Shown: positions 9,006 to 64,000, numbered from the stretch's first letter. The stretch is 64,000 nt of DNA from an uncultured Gammaproteobacteria bacterium (GCA_963807625.1 CAWECN010000011.1:114883-178882), one strand, 5' to 3'. A program made the numbers and translations. The notes: a model not told the origin generated them from the sequence alone.

Positions 9006-11042
9006 ATGACGTCTAAACGCAATATTCTGGTCACCAGTGCACTACCCTATGCCAATGGCCCCATCCATCTAGGGCACCTGGTCGAATATATCCAGACCGA
9101 TATCTGGGCACGCTTCCAGCGTCTACGCGACAATACCTGTTATTACGTGTGTGCCGATGATGCCCACGGCACACCGATCATGTTGCGTGCCCGCCAGGAT
9201 GGCATCACACCGGAAGAACTTATAGCAGCTGTCCAGAAAGAACATGAAGCCGACTTTTCTGATTTTCTCATCGGTTTTGATAATTACTACAGTACGCATT
9301 CTGATGAGAACAGGCACTTTGCATCCAGCATCTATCTGAAACTACGTGAAGACGGCCATATCCGCACGGAGACCATCAAACAGGCTTATGACCCAGAAGC
9401 TGAGATGTTTCTACCTGACCGTTTTATCAAAGGTAGCTGCCCCAAATGTGGCTCCGAAGATCAATACGGCGACAACTGTGAGGTCTGTGGTGCGACCTAT
9501 GATCCGACCGAGCTGAAAAACCCGGTATCAGCTGTCAGTGGTGCTACGCCAATCGAAAAAGATTCTGAACAATACTTTTTCAAACTCAGTGACTTCTCCG
9601 ACATGCTGCAGCAGTGGCTAAAAGCCGGCCACGTACAGTCTGAAGTTGCAAATAAACTGGAAGAATGGTTTGAAGAAGGCCTGAAGGACTGGGATATCTC
9701 GCGTAACGCCCCCTACTGGGGATTCGAGATACCCGATGCACCAGGAAAGTATTTTTATGTGTGGCTGGACGCGCCAATTGGATACATGGCGAGTTTTAAA
9801 AACTTCTGCGACAAGCAGGGCATCAGCTTCGATGATTACTGGGCCGCTGACAGTAAAAACGAGCTCTACCATTTTATCGGTAAAGACATCGCTCGCTTCC
9901 ACACCCTGTTCTGGCCGGCGGTTTTAGATGGCTCCGGTTATCGCAAACCGACGGCTGTATTCTGTCATGGTTTCCTTACCGTGAATGGTCAGAAGATGTC
10001 GAAATCACGTGGCACCTTTATCAAGGCTCGCACTTATCTCGATAACCTGAATCCCGAATACCTGCGTTATTACTACACCGCCAAACTATCGTCTGGTGTC
10101 GATGATATCGACCTGAACCTGGAAGACTTCATGCAGCGCGTTAACTCTGACCTGGTCGGAAAAGTAGTCAACATCGCCAGCCGTTGTGCCGGATTTATCA
10201 CCAAAAAATTTGACGGCCAGTTGTCTGCCGAATTACCAGAGACTGAGCTATACAATGATATGGTCGCAGCCGGTGAGCAGATCGCGGAACACTACGAGAA
10301 CCGTGAATACAATAAAGCCGTGCGCGAGATCATGGCACAGGCAGATAAAGCCAACGTCTATATCGATGAGAACAAACCCTGGGTACTGATAAAAGAAGAA
10401 GGCCGTGAAGACGAGGTGCAAAAAATTTGCACACAGGGTCTTAACATGTTCCGCCTGCTGATGACCTGGTTAAAACCTATCCTGCCGGCTACCGCCGAAA
10501 AATCGGAAGCCTTCTTAAACACTGAATTTAGATGGGCAAGCATCGCGCAACCGCTGCTCTCTCACCAGATAAACAAATTCAAACCTTTGCTTACACGCAT
10601 AGAAAAAGAGCAGATCGAAGCCATGACCCATGACTCAATAGAAGATACCGCCATTAATGCCACCGCTGTCGAAGCAGAGTCACTGAGCGGGCCACTGGCG
10701 GATGACCCGATTGCCGAGCAGATCAACTTTGAGGACTTCGCAAAGATCGACCTTCGCATCGCTAAAATAGTGAAAGCCGAACATGTCGAAGGTGCCGATA
10801 AATTGCTGCAACTCACCCTTGATCTGGGTGGTCAGTCACGGAATATTTTTGCTGGCATCAAGTCGGCCTACACACCTGAAGACCTGGAAGGAAAACTCAC
10901 CGTGATGGTGGCCAACCTGGCGCCGCGAAAGATGCGTTTTGGCATATCTGAAGGCATGGTGCTCGCAGCCGGTCCTGGCGGTAAAGAGCTGTTCATCCTT
11001 AATCCAGATGACGGCGCCATCCCTGGTATGAAAGTTAAATAA
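9006..11042 (+). CDS. metG: Methionine--tRNA ligase
   Basis: [12 protein letters not shown] (HIGH), Zn knuckles, KMSKS, C-terminal tRNA-binding domain [12 protein letters not shown]. Confidence 0.98.
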
Positions 11043-11176
11043 TCTAAAACCTCTTCCAAACTGGACTGATTATAAGTTAATAATAAATCACACAATTTTT
11101 CCGTATATCTGCAATAAGTAACAGCTTGTCATATATACTAATATCTAATTACTTGACTCTATTATACTAATGGTCA

Positions 11177-12505
11177 ATGAAAGTACTTATCTTAGAAAAC
11201 GGACGTTTATTCCAGAAGATCCTGCAGGACCTGCTCATAGAGCTTGGCTGCACCGTCAGCTGCGTGCGCACCGGCGAGGAAGGCCTTGATCTGCTAGTAA
11301 ACACCGATGAAGAAACCAGATACGAGCTGATTATCGCGTCACAACACATCTTCGATAAAAGCGGTGCCGACTTCATCCAGCATTGCAAAAATTCCGAACT
11401 GAATACACCCATAATCCTGCTGACATCCGAGCCGAATGAAACCCTGTTAAAGAACGCACGCGCCGCAGGAATCAAAGATATTTTTCCAAAGACAAATATC
11501 ACCTATCTGAAGTCAAGCATTCGCTACTATATCCAGGGCGAGAAAAACTTCGATATACAGGGCGGCAGGATACTCTATGTCGAAGACAGTGCTTCGGTCG
11601 CACATATCGTAACCAAGTACCTTAAAAAACTTAACCTCGAAGTGACACACTTCTCTTCCGCAGAGGAAGCATTTCACGCCTTTGCCGATAACGAATATGA
11701 CCTGGTCATCACCGACGTGATGTTAGAAGGCACGATGGACGGCCTCTCCCTGGTGCGCATGATCCGTGCATCGAATACTCACTCGGCGAAAACACCGATA
11801 CTGGCGATGACCGGTCATGATGATAGTCAGCTACGTATCGATCTATTTCATGCTGGCATCAACGATTATGTTACCAAGCCACCGATCGAGGAAGAACTGG
11901 CTGCGCGGGTAAACAATCTGATCATAAATAAGCGTCTGGCCGACCGGGTACGCGAGCAGCAGCGCTCGCTTTACAATATCGCGATGACCGACCAGCTCAC
12001 GACCTGCCATAATCGGCACAGCCTTTCCGAGTTCGCGCCGAAATATATTAAAGATTCTGTCCGTTACGATTTTCCACTTAGCATCATGATCCTCGATCTC
12101 GATAATTTCAAACAGATCAATGATGAATTCGGACATACCACGGGTGATATCGTACTTTCAGAGATAGGCAAATTACTGATGACCACCTGCCGCCAGGGTG
12201 ATATCGTTTCGCGGATCGGCGGCGAAGAGTTTTTGACCCTGTTGCCGCACTGCAACATATACGATGCCATGAAAAAGGCGGAAGCAATCCGCGCCATGAT
12301 CGAGATGTCAAAACCCTCTGATTTAGAGGTGACTGCCAGTATAGGAGTCGCCTCACTGATCGAACAGCATGACGAAGACTTCGACAAGTTCTATAAAGCA
12401 GCCGACACCGCGGTCTATCACTCCAAAGAAAATGGTCGCAACCAGGTAACAGCAGACGCCGACAGTATCGAAGCCTCAGAAATAAAGCTTGCCAGTGGCG
12501 GATAA
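11177..12505 (+). CDS. Diguanylate cyclase response regulator (pseudo-REC - REC - GGEEF)
   Basis: Two receiver folds (the second has VED...ITDVM), TDQLT linker, DLDNFKQIND, RQGD I-site five residues before GGEEF, AADTAVYHSKENGRNQV. Confidence 0.92.
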   Translation: MKVLILENGRLFQKILQDLLIELGCTVSCVRTGEEGLDLLVNTDEETRYELIIASQHIFDKSGADFIQHCKNSELNTPIILLTSEPNETLLKNARAAGIKDIFPKTNITYLKSSIRYYIQGEKNFDIQGGRILYVEDSASVAHIVTKYLKKLNLEVTHFSSAEEAFHAFADNEYDLVITDVMLEGTMDGLSLVRMIRASNTHSAKTPILAMTGHDDSQLRIDLFHAGINDYVTKPPIEEELAARVNNLIINKRLADRVREQQRSLYNIAMTDQLTTCHNRHSLSEFAPKYIKDSVRYDFPLSIMILDLDNFKQINDEFGHTTGDIVLSEIGKLLMTTCRQGDIVSRIGGEEFLTLLPHCNIYDAMKKAEAIRAMIEMSKPSDLEVTASIGVASLIEQHDEDFDKFYKAADTAVYHSKENGRNQVTADADSIEASEIKLASGG

Positions 12506-12617
12506 GTTATCGGCCCGGTTTTAGACTGAACATAAAAACCTACTTTCCTTGTTGATTCTATTCGTTTTTTTTAAGCTAAATCAAATTTACAGGATAACAA
12601 TCTGCTAGAATGCGCGG

Positions 12618-13199
12618 ATGACAGAATTCGCCCTCATCCTGCTAAGCACCATACTGGTCAACAATTTTGTACTGGTCAAATTTCTTGGCCTGTGCCCGTT
12701 CATGGGTGTATCCCGAAAACTGGAAACCGCTATCGGTATGGCGCTGGCAACCACCTTCGTACTCACCCTGTCTTCAGTCAGCAGTTACCTGGTCAATGAG
12801 TACATCCTGGCGCCACTCGAACTGGAATATATGCGCACCATAATGTTTATCCTGGTGATCGCTGTGGTGGTGCAGTTCACCGAGATGGTCGTACATAAAA
12901 CCAGTCCGTTGCTATACAACGTGCTCGGTATCTTCCTGCCGCTGATCACTACTAACTGTGCCGTACTAGGAGTCGCTCTGCTCAATGTTCAGGAGCAGCA
13001 TGGATTTATACAGTCGCTGTTTTATGGCTTTGGCGCTGCCGTCGGCTTCTCCCTGGTACTGATCCTGTTCTCAGCACTACGAGAACGCATCAATGTCGCC
13101 GATGTTCCAGAGGCATTTCAGGGAACATCGATCGCACTAATCACTGCGGGCATCATGTCACTCGCGTTCATGGGATTTGCCGGCCTCATCAAGATATAG
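12618..13199 (+). CDS. rsxA: Rnf/Rsx electron transport complex subunit A
   Basis: [35 protein letters not shown]. Confidence 0.96.
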
Positions 13200-59013: not shown

Positions 59014-59122
59014 ACTCACGTCATCGCGAGTGAAGAGTGGTAATCTTATGTGACACATGCAGGTGCCTGCACAAGACTGCCACGCTTCGCTAGCTATAAC
59101 AGCTTCTCATTTTTTAAACATA

Positions 59123-60205
59123 ATGCCTGAACCATTAAAAAACCTGTACAGCAAACAGCTGATCTCAGAACTGAGCGATGAGATCACGATACAGCATGCC
59201 GCATTTGACCCGGTAGCTTTCGAGCGATCTATATTTGATAAAAGCTGGAAGGAAAAAGAACTAAAACAGCGTATGAGACATATCGCTGAATGTCTGCAGC
59301 AGCACCTGCCGCCAGAATACCCCAGGGCGATAGCGATATTAAAACCTGTCGCTGAAAAATTTAACGGTTTTGAATATATGTTCTTTCAGGATTACGTAGA
59401 ATGTTACGGTCTGGATGACTTCGAAATATCGATCGATGCCCTGGAGCACTTCACGAAATTCGCCAGTTCAGAATTCGCAGTCCGGGCTTTCATCCTTCAG
59501 GATCAAAAACGCATGATGCAACAGATGCTGACCTGGGCAAGGTCAGATAACCATCATGTCCGACGCCTCGCTTCCGAGGGCTGCCGTCCACGCCTGCCCT
59601 GGGCGATCGCTCTACCCGCTTTCAAAAACGACCCGAGACCTGTTCTACCCATATTAAAAATCCTGATGAATGATGACAGTGAATACGTTAGGCGCAGTGT
59701 TGCCAATAACCTGAATGACATCTCAAAGGATAATCCCGACATCGTTTTAAACTGGGCAGAACGATGGTCAGGGAAAAACAAAAATACAGACAGGTTAATA
59801 AAACATGCCTGCCGCACATTATTGAAACAGGGTGATCAACATGCATTATCACTTTTTGGTTTTACCGCAGCAGAACATATCAAGGTTTACAAGTTTTCAG
59901 TCCAACCAGATGTATCCATAGGTGAAAAACTGACTTTCTCGTTTTTATTAAAAAGCCCGGGGGCACGACTAGGAAAGTGCCGTATCGAATTTGCGATTGA
60001 TTTTGCCAAAGCCAATAACAAACAGAGCAGAAAAGTGTTCAAGATTTCAGAATCCGATTATGCTGAAAAAGAAAAACAGGTAACAAAATATTTTTCGTTC
60101 AAACAAATATCCACCCGAAGATACTATAGTGGGAAACACAGACTTTCTATAATCATAAATGGCATAGAGAAAATCTCAAAACCTTTTGAACTTATATTGA
60201 AATAA
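59123..60205 (+). CDS. DNA alkylation repair family protein (AlkD/HEAT-like, YhaZ-type)
   Basis: MPEPLKNLY, ELKQRMRHI, SSEFAVRAF, HHVRRLASEGCRPRLPW, YVRRSVANNLNDISKD, ISTRRYYSGKH. Confidence 0.85.
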   Translation: MPEPLKNLYSKQLISELSDEITIQHAAFDPVAFERSIFDKSWKEKELKQRMRHIAECLQQHLPPEYPRAIAILKPVAEKFNGFEYMFFQDYVECYGLDDFEISIDALEHFTKFASSEFAVRAFILQDQKRMMQQMLTWARSDNHHVRRLASEGCRPRLPWAIALPAFKNDPRPVLPILKILMNDDSEYVRRSVANNLNDISKDNPDIVLNWAERWSGKNKNTDRLIKHACRTLLKQGDQHALSLFGFTAAEHIKVYKFSVQPDVSIGEKLTFSFLLKSPGARLGKCRIEFAIDFAKANNKQSRKVFKISESDYAEKEKQVTKYFSFKQISTRRYYSGKHRLSIIINGIEKISKPFELILK

Positions 60206-60254
60206 ATGCCCTGGTCCAGCAAAAAGTGGTTACTGAGGTTATTAATTATTAAAT

Positions 60255-62252
60255 CTAAAAAACACCGAACAGTTTCTTTTCTTTATCATGGTTCTGCAGC
60301 ATTGTTATGATGGTTTTATTCTCAGCCTGCTCTGCAAGATCGATTGCCTGTTCACGTTTATTATTTCTTATATCGATATCAGCATCGGCAGCCAGTAATA
60401 AGCGCACCGACTTCTGGTCACCAGCTAACACTGAAAGAATCAATGCTGTATTGCCGATATTATTCTTAACATCTACTTTCGCCTGATATGCAATTAAAAT
60501 ATCGACTGTCTTGCTGTGCCCCCGGCTGGCTGCCATCATTAACGGTGTATTACCATCCTCTCCTCTAGCATCTACATCCAGTCCTCTTTCGATCAGTATA
60601 GATACCGCCTCGAAATTATTTAACATGGCCGCCTGATGTAGCAGTGTCAGCCCTTTTCTGTCCTTGCTGTTGATATTTGCATGCTTATTGATCAGGAAAG
60701 TGACAGTTGGCGATTTTGCTACACCTATTCCATGCCATAATGCATCATGGCCTAAGGCATCCTGCACCGTTATATCTGCACCGGCATCGAGCAGTCTTTT
60801 TACTGTTGGCAGTGACATCGTGGTCACGGCGACCATCAAATCTGTTTTACCATTCACCAGTGTATTAGCCGGAGACGCGCTCTTATCCAGTAACTGGTTG
60901 CTGATAGCTTCATGTTTGTTCAGGATTGCGTACGACAGGGCGCTGCGATTATTTTTATCTGTTGGCCTGACATTAGCACCGGCTGCTAGCAGATTTTTTA
61001 CAACCTTGTCACTACCCTGCTCAGCTGCATACATCAACGGTGTTTTACCATCGTTGCCTGCAAGGTTTATGTTTGCCTTATTCTGTATTAGCAGACTGAC
61101 AATTTTATCGTGCCCCTGCAGTGCCGCACGTGTCAGCGGTGTATGACCTTCACGGTCCAGCTGGTTTGGATCAGCACCTTTTTTCAATAATGCGGCACTC
61201 ACATCCAGCTGGCCTCGCCAGACTGCGATCATCAGGGGTTGCCAGTTTTTATATACGCCTGTTGTGCTGCTGTTAAGAACCGCCAGTTTCTGATTGACCG
61301 TCATACCGTCCTGTTGCACTGCAGGTAACCTGGCACCGTATTTCTGTAACTGTTTTACTGTCGACTCATGCGGTTTTTTTGCCGCCAGCATGATCGCTGT
61401 TTCGCCCTTACGGTTCTTTGTATTCACCGGCGATTTACTCTTCAATAATACTGAGACGGTTGCATGGTGGCCTTTGGCTGCTGCCAGCATCAGTGCGGTA
61501 TTCCCGTTTGCATCTTTATGGTTCAGTTTCGCACCATGTTTAACCAGGTCACTGACCATAGAACTCTCACCTAAAGATGCTGCAATCAATATTGGCCGGT
61601 CCTTGTATTTATCGGCAGCATTAACATCTGCGCCAGATTTAATCAGCAGCTTGACCATGGTCCTGTCTTTTTGTGTGACCGCATCTAGCAATACCGGCCG
61701 CTGATGTTTGTCACGTGCATCTGCACTTGCGCCCTGCGCCAGCAACTGTTGCGCGGCTTTGATATCGCCAGAACTGACTGCGAGCAACAGCGCTTCTTGT
61801 GGATTCAGTTTTGGATCGATGACTGCAGGTCCAGTGTTTCCTGCCTGTATTTTCTGTAAACGCTTTTCGGCATTTTTATGCCCCTGCTTCGCTGCAGCAC
61901 TGTACCAGTAGATTGCACTTTCCCTGTTCTTTTTTACACCGACACCCTCTTCATAAAGAGTCCCCAGGGAATATTGTGCTCGTTTGTATCCCTGCCTTGC
62001 AGATTTATCCATCCAATAGGCGGAATTTTTGGGATTTTTCTTAATACCCTGACCATTTTTATATAGGACGGCCAGCTGGTACTGCGCCTGTTTGTCACCT
62101 TTTCTTGCGAGTGGTTTGAGGATAGTTACCGCCCTGGCATAATCCTGAGTACGGATAGCCAGTTTTGCATCATCCACGGTTGCCGCTTCTGCACTGAATG
62201 CCAGCAGTAAAGTTATACAGAATAGCGTTATAAGATTTTTCATAAAGATCAT
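60255..62252 (-). CDS. Exported Sel1-repeat plus ankyrin-repeat protein
   Basis: Signal peptide ending SAEA; Sel1 units (AQYQLAVLYKNGQG, AQYSLGTLYEEGVG); more than 10 ankyrin units (GNTALMLAA..GH, GHTPLTRAA, GKTPLMYAA). Confidence 0.9.
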   Translation of the reverse strand: MIFMKNLITLFCITLLLAFSAEAATVDDAKLAIRTQDYARAVTILKPLARKGDKQAQYQLAVLYKNGQGIKKNPKNSAYWMDKSARQGYKRAQYSLGTLYEEGVGVKKNRESAIYWYSAAAKQGHKNAEKRLQKIQAGNTGPAVIDPKLNPQEALLLAVSSGDIKAAQQLLAQGASADARDKHQRPVLLDAVTQKDRTMVKLLIKSGADVNAADKYKDRPILIAASLGESSMVSDLVKHGAKLNHKDANGNTALMLAAAKGHHATVSVLLKSKSPVNTKNRKGETAIMLAAKKPHESTVKQLQKYGARLPAVQQDGMTVNQKLAVLNSSTTGVYKNWQPLMIAVWRGQLDVSAALLKKGADPNQLDREGHTPLTRAALQGHDKIVSLLIQNKANINLAGNDGKTPLMYAAEQGSDKVVKNLLAAGANVRPTDKNNRSALSYAILNKHEAISNQLLDKSASPANTLVNGKTDLMVAVTTMSLPTVKRLLDAGADITVQDALGHDALWHGIGVAKSPTVTFLINKHANINSKDRKGLTLLHQAAMLNNFEAVSILIERGLDVDARGEDGNTPLMMAASRGHSKTVDILIAYQAKVDVKNNIGNTALILSVLAGDQKSVRLLLAADADIDIRNNKREQAIDLAEQAENKTIITMLQNHDKEKKLFGVF

Positions 62253-62259
62253 ACTGAAC

Positions 62260-63585
62260 CTATGCCGTACCAAATTTTGTGTCTACGTTGATGCCGATAC
62301 TCTTTAAAAACGGTGTTGGCAGGATACCTCCCGCACAAACGATGATCGCATCGTTATCGATACAGACTTCGTCATCATCTGTTTTAATCACTACTTTATT
62401 CGGTTCAATATGCTTTACAGTTGACTTCATCAGTACGCGTAAACGCCCCGCCTTTTCAGCATCGGCAATTTTGATACGATTTTTTTCCTTGGCACGGGAA
62501 AATGCCTCGCTTCGGTAAGAGATTGCCACCGTCGTTCCTTCCTCTTCTGAAATACTGACTGCTGCCTCTAGTGCACTATCACCACCACCTACTACCAGCA
62601 CATGCTGGTTTCGATATTGTGCTGGATCAATCAGGCGGTACACCACTTTGGTTTGCTCCTCACCTGGAACACCCAGTTTACGTGGCGTGCCACGACGGCC
62701 TATCGCCAGCAGAATCGCCCGTGTGTGATATGCGCCGGTACCGGTTTTAACATGAAAGCCCCTGCTTTGATCAGCCAGGTTTTCCGCCTCAACACTCTCA
62801 ACGCGCTCTCGATCTTTTATCTTCAGTGCGGCTTTTTCTATAACACCTTGCCAGAATTCCATCAGGGCTTCTTTGGTTGTTTCCTTGAATTGCATCTTAC
62901 CAACTATCGGCAATACCGCTGGCGCCGTCATAACGATTTTCCCTCGCGGATAATGCGACACCGTACCGCCAACGGAGTCCTGTTCCAGCGTAACAAAGTT
63001 CAGTTTTTTATCTTTAGCCGCCAGCGAAGCTGCTATGCCTGCGGGCCCGGCGCCAACAATAACAAGATCAATCACATCACCATTGCTCTTACCGACACCA
63101 TCAAGCTTACAAATGGAATCAACTGCTTCCACACCCTGCTTGACAGCATTTCGGATAAGTCCCATACCACCCAGTTCACCGGCAATAAATATACCCGGCA
63201 CATTTGTCTGGAAGTCTGGATTAACCTGTGGAATATCAACACCACGCTTTTCGGTACCAAATACAAGCTCGATAGCATCAAACGGGCACGCTGTTTTGCA
63301 GGCACCGTGACCTATACAGTGAGTCGGATTAACCAGGTGCGCTTTACCATGAATCACACCTAATACATTTTTGGATCTTTCCGGGCAGGCAGCCACACAA
63401 GTAGCACAACCAAGACAGAGGGCATGATTAACCACCGGGTGTATCGATGCGGGTTCTGTCATACCTGAAGCAATTGCCTCATCATGAACACGTTGACTTT
63501 TCCGGTGTTTTTTTGATTGATGCCTTAAATAAACAAATATAATTAATAAGAGTGGTAGTCCGTATAGCCACATGATGGGCGACAT
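62260..63585 (-). CDS. Membrane-anchored 4Fe-4S dicluster / NAD(P)-FAD oxidoreductase (TrxB/YpdA-like, circularly permuted)
   Basis: TM helix, CLGCATCVAACP, CIGHGACKTACP, TNVPGIFIAGE, IVGAGPAG, VVGGGDSA. Confidence 0.88.
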   Translation of the reverse strand: MSPIMWLYGLPLLLIIFVYLRHQSKKHRKSQRVHDEAIASGMTEPASIHPVVNHALCLGCATCVAACPERSKNVLGVIHGKAHLVNPTHCIGHGACKTACPFDAIELVFGTEKRGVDIPQVNPDFQTNVPGIFIAGELGGMGLIRNAVKQGVEAVDSICKLDGVGKSNGDVIDLVIVGAGPAGIAASLAAKDKKLNFVTLEQDSVGGTVSHYPRGKIVMTAPAVLPIVGKMQFKETTKEALMEFWQGVIEKAALKIKDRERVESVEAENLADQSRGFHVKTGTGAYHTRAILLAIGRRGTPRKLGVPGEEQTKVVYRLIDPAQYRNQHVLVVGGGDSALEAAVSISEEEGTTVAISYRSEAFSRAKEKNRIKIADAEKAGRLRVLMKSTVKHIEPNKVVIKTDDDEVCIDNDAIIVCAGGILPTPFLKSIGINVDTKFGTA

Positions 63586-63911
63586 TGCTGAACCTCTATT
63601 GAGTACCTTTTAGTACTTTTGGAAAAAAACATATAAATAAGTTATTGATTATATATACGAATATTATAATAGTGACGAAATCTCGACAAAAAACACTTTT
63701 TTTAGAGCTATTTCTAGAAAAATCGCTAAACTATTCGATGTAGCTTTATGGGATAATATTCCCAAATAATATTGCACAAGTATAATAGACCATCAGTAAA
63801 ACAATTGCGCCAAAAGAAATGAATTTCTCCTGATATTTTAAAAAATAAGCTACAGGTTCTATCCTTTATATTATGTTATTAAAAAACCCGGTATTAACCC
63901 CTATTCAACTG

Positions 63912-64000
63912 ATGTACAGACATTTTTTGTCCATTTGCATGATCGTAGCCATTGTTTTCGGCTGGCAGCACCGTGATGACAATTATCTGAGCGCCGAAAC
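63912..64000 (+). CDS. 5' fragment of a putative membrane protein (runs off the window edge)
   Basis: ATG 63912: MYRHFLSICMIVAIVFGWQHRDDNYLSAE..., open to the end of the window. Confidence 0.55.
   Translation, partial: MYRHFLSICMIVAIVFGWQHRDDNYLSAE

Follow-up and report, generated by a model that had tools for sequence, protein, structure and literature searches.

In He, Barco, Emerson and Roden (2017; PMC5566968), PCC3, a porin-cytochrome c gene cluster, is proposed as a quinone-linked conduit for Fe(II) oxidation. Its inner-membrane protein (IMP) is described there as ~300 amino acids (aa) long, with five transmembrane (TM) helices, of which TM4 carries an SGxxG motif and TM3 and TM5 bear the two WX3HX13H motifs, a histidine pattern that the authors note as FRD-like, and its periplasmic cytochrome has a median of 21 haems. 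PCC3 consists of four listed genes in that paper, in PMC9900912 (the Gallionellaceae pangenome), in PMC8788666 (the transcriptome of S. lithotrophicus ES-1) and in a preprint on Sideroxydans CL21; in term searches of these four texts flavoprotein terms were absent, as was ‘ankyrin’ from the two PCC3 papers in which it was searched. Here we analyse a 64,000-nucleotide stretch of DNA (the window) from an uncultured Gammaproteobacteria bacterium (GCA_963807625.1, CAWECN010000011.1:114883-178882), together with the sequence of the same contig (C11) beyond position 64000. Open reading frame (ORF) calling and translation gave two tightly packed ORFs on the minus strand, a membrane-anchored Fe-S flavoprotein (FLAV) followed by an exported Sel1-ankyrin protein (Sel1-Ank), and these were the subject of a preliminary description made from the window sequence alone. 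The window ends 415 bases upstream of FLAV. The FLAV and Sel1-Ank genes sit back to back with a PCC3 cluster, an arrangement suggesting that this multihaem-cytochrome wire would receive its electrons from NAD(P)H in the cytoplasm instead of from quinones. We consider it rather probable that FLAV faces the cytoplasm and serves the trans-envelope PCC3 conduit as its NAD(P)H dehydrogenase subunit, forming with the IMP a split, NOX-like, quinone-independent entry module.

A FLAV-seeded scan, with one genome per species, returned 80 loci, which belong to Proteobacteria (gamma, alpha and beta classes), Myxococcota, Bacteroidota, Ignavibacteria, Gemmatimonadota, Acidobacteriota, Planctomycetota, Calditrichota, Nitrospirota, Zixibacteria and further groups. 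FLAV is flanked, usually directly, by an IMP homologue and by a 17-24-haem homologue of the 21-haem cytochrome in ~68 of the 80 loci, and many of the exceptions are contig ends. The linkage of FLAV, IMP and a ~20-haem cytochrome extends over more than ten phyla. The usual order in Bacteroidota and Ignavibacteria is IMP, FLAV and 20-haem cytochrome on one strand, and in Proteobacteria FLAV is divergent from the IMP. The reverse test began from diverse IMP homologues, and in all six of the loci reached in this way a gene with Fer4 and Pyr_redox_3 domains lay less than 4 kb away. Judged by gene neighbourhood, the universal partners of FLAV are the PCC3 IMP and the ~20-haem cytochrome, which the preliminary description had overlooked, and not the repeat protein.

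In some sequences the connection is covalent. FLAV is fused N-terminally to the IMP in L069, L077, L079 and P0131, and in P0134 the order is reversed, the IMP preceding FLAV to give 5 + 1 TM helices plus the dehydrogenase. Only one topology fits both fusion orders, with the IMP N-in/C-out and the FLAV helix N-out/C-in, and this would place the Fe-S and flavin domains in the cytoplasm, in agreement with the positive-inside rule. In the window the FLAV helix (aa 5-20; 63526..63573, minus strand, as are all FLAV and Sel1-Ank features below) is recognized as an N-terminal hydrophobic stretch and is followed by the strongly basic sequence RHQSKKHRKSQR; an AlphaFold2 (AF2) model shows residues 3-40 as a single helix. 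The motifs and this topology are consistent with the membrane-bound NAD(P)H-to-Fe-S module that had been proposed at the outset, and the PCC3 cytochromes now supply it with a candidate partner. Two other sequences, P0228 and P0230, carry multihaem cytochrome domains N-terminal to the ferredoxin-flavoprotein module in one polypeptide, P0230 also with two FHA domains and an MtrC-like domain; in this arrangement one TM helix would have the c-type haems on one side of it and the flavin on the other. FLAV modules with C-terminal tails of ~570-940 aa were also seen (P0129, P0130 and P0135), with TPR-type Pfam matches in P0129 and P0135. In P0130 and P0135 the tail comes after a low-complexity linker, with no TM helix between the FLAV module and the tail.

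The cluster facing FLAV resembles the published PCC3. The IMP gene begins in the window (63873..64000, plus strand, called from its ORF and motifs), encodes 282 aa and runs to C11:179600. It is divergent from FLAV across 287 bp of AT-rich intergenic sequence (63586..63872) common to the FLAV and PCC3 operons. In the public annotation of this genome the IMP gene call (P0371, 269 aa) starts 13 codons after the first ATG (window 63873-63911), which leaves the true IMP start uncertain. The protein has five hydrophobic TM helices and the motifs W81-x3-H85-x13-H99, S122-G123-x2-G126 and W257-x3-H261-x13-H275. Among 57 homologues the four His residues, G123, G126 and W257 are invariant, and W81 and S122 are present in at least 90%. 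By these sequence features the divergent membrane protein corresponds precisely to the PCC3 IMP. The IMP gene is followed by genes for a 534-aa cytochrome with 21 CxxCH motifs, which starts 24 nt after it, a 204-aa cytochrome with 7 CxxCH motifs, a 691-aa putative porin (weak SPOR/TPR matches, conserved homologues), and nrdA and nrdB. The multihaem cytochromes that the preliminary description had expected to lie beyond position 64000 are thus present, as the 21-haem and 7-haem proteins encoded divergently from FLAV. About 6 kb on, beyond nrdAB, lies the gene for a 1105-aa lipoprotein (C11:189737-193054, plus strand) with the lipobox LVAGC and 36 CxxCH motifs, built of repeats related to the 7-haem cytochrome; this is probably the ‘extracellular’ PCC3 cytochrome. 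With its IMP, its periplasmic cytochrome of 21 haems, a putative outer-membrane protein and a candidate outer cytochrome of very large size, here with 36 haems, the cluster is like that of He et al. (2017), and on this sequence evidence it is a member of the known, computationally defined PCC3 kind. It differs from the published PCC3 in the placement of nrdAB between the putative porin and the 36-haem gene. These two genes, for a class I ribonucleotide reductase (L001:10213-15068; C11:184212-189067), lie inside a PCC3 cluster that is contiguous elsewhere. The closest relative, L035, has a 15-haem cytochrome in place of the 7-haem one.

The FLAV gene (62260..63585; ORF, Pfam, AF2 and Foldseek) encodes 441 aa. 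Re-reading of the translation reproduced exactly the motif order first reported for it, namely TM helix, CxxCxxCxxxCP, CxxHxxCxxxCP, GE segment, GAGPAG, GGGDSA and C-terminus. Alignment places the first ferredoxin motif, C57-x2-C60-x2-C63-x3-C67-P, at 63382..63417 and the second, C90-x2-H93-x2-C96-x3-C100-P, in which His replaces the second Cys, at 63283..63318. The ferredoxin domain matches Pfam Fer4_10 (PF13237) at 41.8 bits against a cut-off of 25.5 and holds seven Cys and His93. C57, C63, C67, C90, C96 and C100 are invariant, whereas position 60 holds Cys in 45 sequences out of 69 and Ser, Thr or Ala in the others. H93 is kept in all 69 sequences of one alignment (A2), in 30 of the 32 of another (A1) and in 112 of 126 representatives. 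By classical 2[4Fe-4S] ferredoxin wiring the cluster of motif 2 and C67 would have three Cys ligands and one His, and the other cluster would be all-Cys in this protein. Clusters of the [4Fe-4S] type with a His ligand are typically entry or exit clusters, as in the distal cluster of [NiFe] hydrogenases.

The nucleotide-binding part of FLAV carries all three motifs of two-dinucleotide-binding-domain flavoproteins (the flavin adenine dinucleotide (FAD) GxGxxG, the NAD(P)H GxGxxA/G and the GD-type motif), present and conserved but in permuted order. The GD-type segment comes first (aa 112-165, TNVPGIFIAGE and a helix; 63091..63252), as seen in profiles, the AF2 model and the alignment. It includes IPQVNPDFQTNVPGIFIAGE at aa 118-137, TNVPGIFIAGE itself at 127-137 and AVKQG at 148-152; G136, E137 and G140 are invariant in the 69-sequence alignment. 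The FAD motif GAGPAG (aa 178-183; 63037..63054) follows, identified with Pfam and with G178, G180 and G183 invariant, and then the NAD(P)H motif GGGDSA (aa 333-338; 62572..62589; Pfam and alignment), in which G333-G335 and S337 are invariant. Behind it lies a patch of Y357-R358...R364...K366, with R358 also invariant, that resembles the 2'-phosphate site of NADPH-dependent relatives and suggests a preference for NADPH. The C-terminal motif DAIIVCAGG..PTPFL occupies residues 412-427, and the protein ends at residue 441. Pyr_redox_3 matches FLAV at 142 bits (Pfam cut-off 30). FAD and Fe-S clusters are the likely cofactors on these motifs. The translation has no CxxC outside the ferredoxin domain, where the only other Cys are C160, C408 and C417, so the absence of a redox CxxC noted earlier for FLAV is borne out.

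From these parts the following mechanism can be proposed. The single N-terminal helix would tether FLAV to the inner membrane in the N-out/C-in orientation and would serve as the sixth helix of the IMP bundle, so that 6 TM helices and a dehydrogenase would make up one unit independent of the quinone pool. The two-cluster ferredoxin domain after the helix would hold one all-Cys and one 3-Cys + His cluster, and the permutation would splice this domain straight onto the FAD-binding core. As ligands, the four invariant IMP His residues would keep a stack of two b haems in place across the membrane. Electrons would pass from NAD(P)H to FAD, to the first [Fe-S] cluster, to the His-ligated [Fe-S] cluster and to the two IMP haems; the onward route would lead to the 21-haem periplasmic cytochrome, then to the 7-haem cytochrome and the outer-membrane barrel, and finally to the 36-haem lipoprotein. 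A direct contact between FLAV and IMP and the presence of haem b in the IMP are presumed in this scheme.

Several observations count against this proposal. Foldseek of the IMP model against the PDB returned nothing significant: the top match was cytochrome b561 (E 0.64), and neither NOX nor FRD appeared. Pfam (E up to 10) gave no match for the IMP, and a profile search found no relative among PDB sequences. The only trace of FRD was a Ferric_reduct (PF01794) score of 15.6 bits, against a cut-off of 28, in one fusion. In L004, a Methylococcaceae metagenome-assembled genome (MAG), the FLAV/Sel1-Ank pair (9914-13153) stands directly after hemA-prfA-prmC among housekeeping genes, and the 10 kb upstream of the pair and the 4 kb downstream contain no PCC3 genes (IMP, multihaem cytochrome). 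Many carriers of the module are lithoautotrophs in need of reducing power, which would suit inward flow, and the published PCC3 model (PMC5566968) assumes Fe(II) oxidation and a quinone link. To these are added the restricted distribution of Sel1-Ank and the basis of the permutation in three dimensions, both taken up below.

The Sel1-Ank gene (60255..62252; ORF, Pfam and conserved downstream homologues) encodes 665 aa from the ATG at 62252. The longest ORF, 60255..62273, opens with TTG, and the ATG is the likely start. The FLAV stop codon is a TAG at 62262-62260, leaving a gap of 7 nt to this ATG, as the preliminary description had it. Sel1-Ank is probably translationally coupled to FLAV. The tight packing, the AT-rich spacer upstream and the convergent gene 3' of Sel1-Ank make the pair look like a two-gene operon; scans of 59900-64000 for promoters and terminators gave no match above chance. 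A 382-aa ORF on the plus strand at window 59057-60205 points toward the Sel1-Ank gene. This genome holds no FLAV paralogue, its sole distant relative of FLAV being TrxB-like at 23% identity.

Sel1-Ank opens with a Sec signal peptide (aa 1-23, MIFMKNLITLFCITLLLAFSAEA|A, predicted cleavage AEA|A; 62184..62252), assigned from its sequence and from homologues with a hydrophobic leader. This is followed by ~3 Sel1-like repeats (aa ~25-140; 61833..62180; Pfam Sel1 in two stretches, PF08238 at 73.3 bits, cut-off 30.7) and by ~15 ankyrin repeats in two arrays of 5 and 10 (aa 149-313 and 336-650; 60303..61808), seen in Pfam and in the 33-residue register (Ank_2, PF12796, 256.7 bits, cut-off 27.3). The earlier account of an exported protein with Sel1 and more than ten ankyrin repeats therefore stands. 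Its claim of linkage between the two genes stands as well, for a limited set of lineages. Some 29 loci of proteobacterial type had enough sequence for the comparison (Gamma- and Alphaproteobacteria, Myxococcota and one Planctomycetales MAG), and a Sel1-Ank homologue lies directly downstream of FLAV in 18 of them and nearby in 3 more. The pair is therefore conserved in other genomes, and the possibility raised earlier that the two genes might be unlinked elsewhere does not apply. Among the downstream homologues scanned, Ank repeats were found in 19 of 19 and Sel1 repeats in 17 of 19, and the homologues have signal-peptide-like N-termini. Elsewhere among the 80 loci, in Betaproteobacteria and the remaining phyla, Bacteroidota and Acidobacteriota included, no Sel1-Ank accompanies FLAV, and the gene after FLAV is usually one for a cytochrome. 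Because it is missing from most lineages that carry the FLAV-IMP-cytochrome core, we regard Sel1-Ank, on its distribution, as a lineage-specific accessory and not a core part.

Our best guess for Sel1-Ank is that it helps to scaffold or assemble the cytochrome wire in the periplasm, a role that we would put at about an even bet. An array of ~15 ankyrin repeats is estimated to be roughly 150 Å long, of the order of the periplasm. The main competing explanation places Sel1-Ank outside the electron conduit, as a general periplasmic adaptor for envelope assembly or stress protection that is co-transcribed with FLAV in some lineages. The patchy distribution fits such an adaptor, as does the generic nature of Sel1 and Ank repeats as interaction modules, and no fusion joining Sel1-Ank with a redox component was detected. 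The TPR tails of P0130 and P0135 were considered as Rosetta-stone support for a periplasmic repeat partner and were set aside: since no TM helix separates them from the FLAV module they look cytoplasmic, and they are not equivalent to Sel1-Ank. Against a general adaptor stand the 7-nt gap and the same gene order in 18 loci from Gammaproteobacteria, Alphaproteobacteria, Myxococcota and a Planctomycetales MAG, as well as the retention of the FLAV/Sel1-Ank pair even without an adjacent PCC3, as in L004. We consider the adaptor explanation unlikely, though it is the strongest of the alternatives. A described case with some likeness is AnkB of Pseudomonas aeruginosa, a short periplasmic ankyrin partner of the catalase KatB that has no Sel1 repeats and is needed for KatB function. 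By description, AnkB is like Sel1-Ank in being an exported ankyrin protein encoded directly after the gene of a redox enzyme.

The proposed complex could in principle run in either direction. Outward flow is favoured for three reasons. Inward flow would oppose the membrane potential and run uphill to NAD(P)+, the module has spread in heterotrophic phyla, and the PCC3 genes of S. lithotrophicus ES-1 are down-regulated on Fe(II) (PMC8788666). Were the same complex to work inward, PCC3 would take up extracellular electrons from Fe(II), minerals or cathodes and FLAV would reduce NAD(P)+ for CO2 fixation. TrxR-type ferredoxin-NADP+ reductases (FNRs) are reversible enzymes, which would permit this, and autotrophs that oxidise sulfur or iron (Thiotrichaceae, Thiodiazotropha, Sedimenticola, Endoriftia) are numerous among the carriers; the proposal of PCC3 as an Fe(II)-oxidation conduit (PMC5566968) points the same way. 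Inward transfer through the two-haem relay would, however, have to proceed against an inside-negative potential and climb to -320 mV from the potential of Fe(II) or of sulfide; no energy-coupling part is visible. The module is also equally common in the heterotrophic Bacteroidota, Acidobacteriota, Planctomycetota and Gemmatimonadota, and the response of ES-1 to Fe(II) (PMC8788666) goes in the opposite sense. Inward flow consequently seems to us a poor second to outward flow, and distinctly improbable.

With outward flow as the preferred direction, a bolder reading of the whole system may be put forward tentatively, its parts taken jointly and at somewhat below an even chance. PCC3 would then be not a quinone-linked iron oxidase but a quinone-independent, split NOX-like NAD(P)H:extracellular-acceptor oxidoreductase present in more than ten phyla. 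Its permuted TrxR fold, joined to a ferredoxin domain with an exit cluster ligated by His, would reduce a new family of di-haem-b membrane proteins hard-wired to wires of 20 to >60 haems. In Gamma- and Alphaproteobacteria the ~15-ankyrin solenoid, of periplasm-spanning length, would guide or sheathe the wire.

The permuted order of FLAV was examined with Pfam and NCBIfam profiles run on the native sequence and on a sequence in which residues 112-165 had been moved behind residue 439. In the native protein the matches from residue ~173 to the C-terminus (173-437) cover only the starts of the models, about the first 85%, and this early stop implies that the usual C-terminal FAD segment is missing from the C-terminus of FLAV. 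On rearrangement the YpdA profile was extended from 1-264 to 1-288 of 316, TRX_reduct from 2-215 to 2-295 of 300, Pyr_redox_3 from 1-282 to 1-305 of 305 and Pyr_redox_2 from 2-252 to 2-291 of 291, each of the four gaining 6-9 bits; several other family models behave alike. Residues 112-172 alone, searched against PDB sequences, matched the C-terminal GD segments of thioredoxin reductase (TrxR; 5nii, 240-285 of 309, and 4gcm), GltD and dihydrolipoamide dehydrogenase. All of these matches are weak (best E 0.023), and one is unrelated (a designed TIM barrel). Among 150 FLAV-family representatives, clustered at 50% identity, both motifs could be located in 130, and the GE motif precedes GxGPxG in 128 of these. 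With H93 kept in 69 of 69 sequences and E137 invariant, this family-wide GE-first order makes it clear that neither the permuted order nor the His of motif 2 is due to chance.

Structure prediction is in line with this result. The AF2 model of FLAV, built from the 69-sequence alignment, is one compact fold (predicted local distance difference test (pLDDT) 91, predicted template-modelling score 0.84), in which a strand at 132-134 and a helix at 144-159 (pLDDT >=82) come directly before the first Rossmann strand at 172-177. In Foldseek against the PDB the model matched YpdA/Bdr best (E 4e-21), followed by TrxR-type FNRs, with ~272 of ~322 target columns aligned, as expected if the C-terminal element of the target cannot be aligned sequentially. 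Circular permutation, which the preliminary description had proposed together with an AlphaFold and fold comparison as a check, is thus upheld at the profile level, and the check itself yielded a confident single fold nearest to YpdA/Bdr and the TrxR-type FNRs. Such a permutation of the TrxR fold we judge, at this level, to be very likely. The other possibility is that residues 112-165 are a linker resembling a GD motif and that FLAV has an FAD domain cut short at the C-terminal end, with no permutation. The individually weak PDB matches of the isolated segment and the ~272-column span of the Foldseek alignment lend themselves to this view, and the equivalence of 112-165 with the TrxR C-terminus in three dimensions is a prediction from profiles. 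A linker would not, however, be expected to let four independent profiles reach their ends, with a gain of 6-9 bits, only when moved C-terminally, to keep G136, E137 and G140 invariant in 69 sequences, or to be modelled as a strand and helix at this confidence. The GD strand is established as contributing to the FAD site in two-dinucleotide-binding-domain flavoproteins, and a TrxR fold without it would be short of part of that site. The linker explanation is accordingly very improbable. The tripeptide FGT occurs twice in FLAV, at aa 109-111 (63253-63261), just before the permuted segment, and at aa 438-440 (62263-62271), at the C-terminus; the doubling may be a trace of an origin of the permutation by duplication and truncation.

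Membership of FLAV in the known families nearest to it was considered and rejected. Its score against thioredoxin reductase (TIGR01292) is 80.4 bits, where the cut-off is 343.45; it has no redox CxxC in the NADPH domain, and its GD-type segment (125-165) precedes the GxGxxG at 178 and so departs from the collinear order. Against YpdA/Bdr (TIGR04018) it scores 157 bits (cut-off 339.9) and has GAGPAG instead of GGGPCG, with Ala for the Cys that we take to define YpdA. The fold itself is that of YpdA/Bdr, with Foldseek matches to 7apr, 7a76 and 7a7b at E 4e-21 to 3e-20 and a TM-score of 0.57 normalised by target. YpdA/Bdr and low-Mr TrxR (7a7b, 7a76, 7apr and 1tde) are the best sequence and structure matches of FLAV and share with it the fold and the FAD and NAD(P)H motifs; FLAV differs from them in its permuted order, in having neither the CxxC nor the YpdA Cys, and in the added TM helix and two-cluster ferredoxin. 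The TrxR-type FNRs (B. subtilis YumC, 3lzw; Chlorobaculum FNR, 3ab1; T. thermophilus, 2zbw), matched at E 1e-16 to 1e-18, are like FLAV in having a TrxR fold without a redox disulfide and in transferring electrons between NAD(P)H and Fe-S centres. They are themselves soluble and collinear, with a C-terminal extension stacking on the flavin and a free ferredoxin, whereas in FLAV the ferredoxin is fused, the order permuted and the protein anchored to the membrane. That FLAV is an ordinary thiol- or ferredoxin-reducing enzyme standing beside the cytochrome cluster by chance, without electron exchange, is scarcely credible: its best sequence and fold matches are indeed bacillithiol-disulfide reductase and thioredoxin reductases, but it lacks both the redox CxxC and the YpdA Cys and scores far under both family cut-offs, the adjacency recurs in many phyla (~68 of 80 loci) and was seen at all 6 loci of the reverse test, and the covalent fusions to IMP and multihaem cytochromes bring this explanation close to refutation.

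Neither a permuted TrxR nor a flavoprotein that partners multihaem clusters turned up in searches of the literature. In the literature searched we likewise found no published description of FLAV, of the permuted fold, of the His-bearing cluster motif, of the near-obligate pairing or fusion with the IMP or of the Sel1-Ank companion, in keeping with the initial impression that the function of this module is undescribed. PCC3 clusters are widespread, occurring in iron- and sulfur-oxidisers, in symbionts and in many sediment and soil phyla, and PCC3 genes serve as markers of Fe(II) oxidation. If the proposal made here is true, FLAV would supply the system with a dedicated inner-membrane link to metabolism, the entry point of PCC3 would move from the quinone pool to the pyridine-nucleotide pool, and the assumed direction would probably change to electron export. 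FLAV gives a simple, soluble and assayable handle on an otherwise intractable system, and in its family nature offers a clean case of a circularly permuted thioredoxin-reductase fold.

Two kinds of membrane redox system invite comparison with the pair of IMP and FLAV. In the Hmc and Tmc complexes of Desulfovibrio a multihaem cytochrome in the periplasm, a cytochrome b in the membrane and an Fe-S protein on the cytoplasmic side make up a quinone-independent inner-membrane link; their cytoplasmic subunit is HdrD-like (CCG domains) and has no flavin or NAD(P)H site. On general description the proposed FLAV-PCC3 system would be like them in linking the two sides of the inner membrane independently of quinones, the protein families being unrelated. 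The likeness to NOX, FRE and MsrQ is one of design. In these proteins a cytoplasmic NAD(P)H flavoprotein serves two b haems, whose ligands are His pairs with a spacing of 13 residues on two helices, and the IMP and FLAV match this design in their two 13-apart His pairs on two TM helices and, in P0134, in the combination of 6 TM helices with a dehydrogenase. Homology of the IMP to FRD/NOX or to cytochrome b561 was tested in three ways (Foldseek, PDB profile and Pfam), with nothing significant, and by these tests the NOX parallel is to be read as an analogy only. The dehydrogenases also differ in kind, that of NOX having an FNR fold and that of FLAV a TrxR fold. In contrast to NOX and FRD, the IMP and FLAV would have an Fe-S relay interposed between flavin and haem, and would pass their electrons to a multihaem cytochrome in place of O2 or Fe(III).

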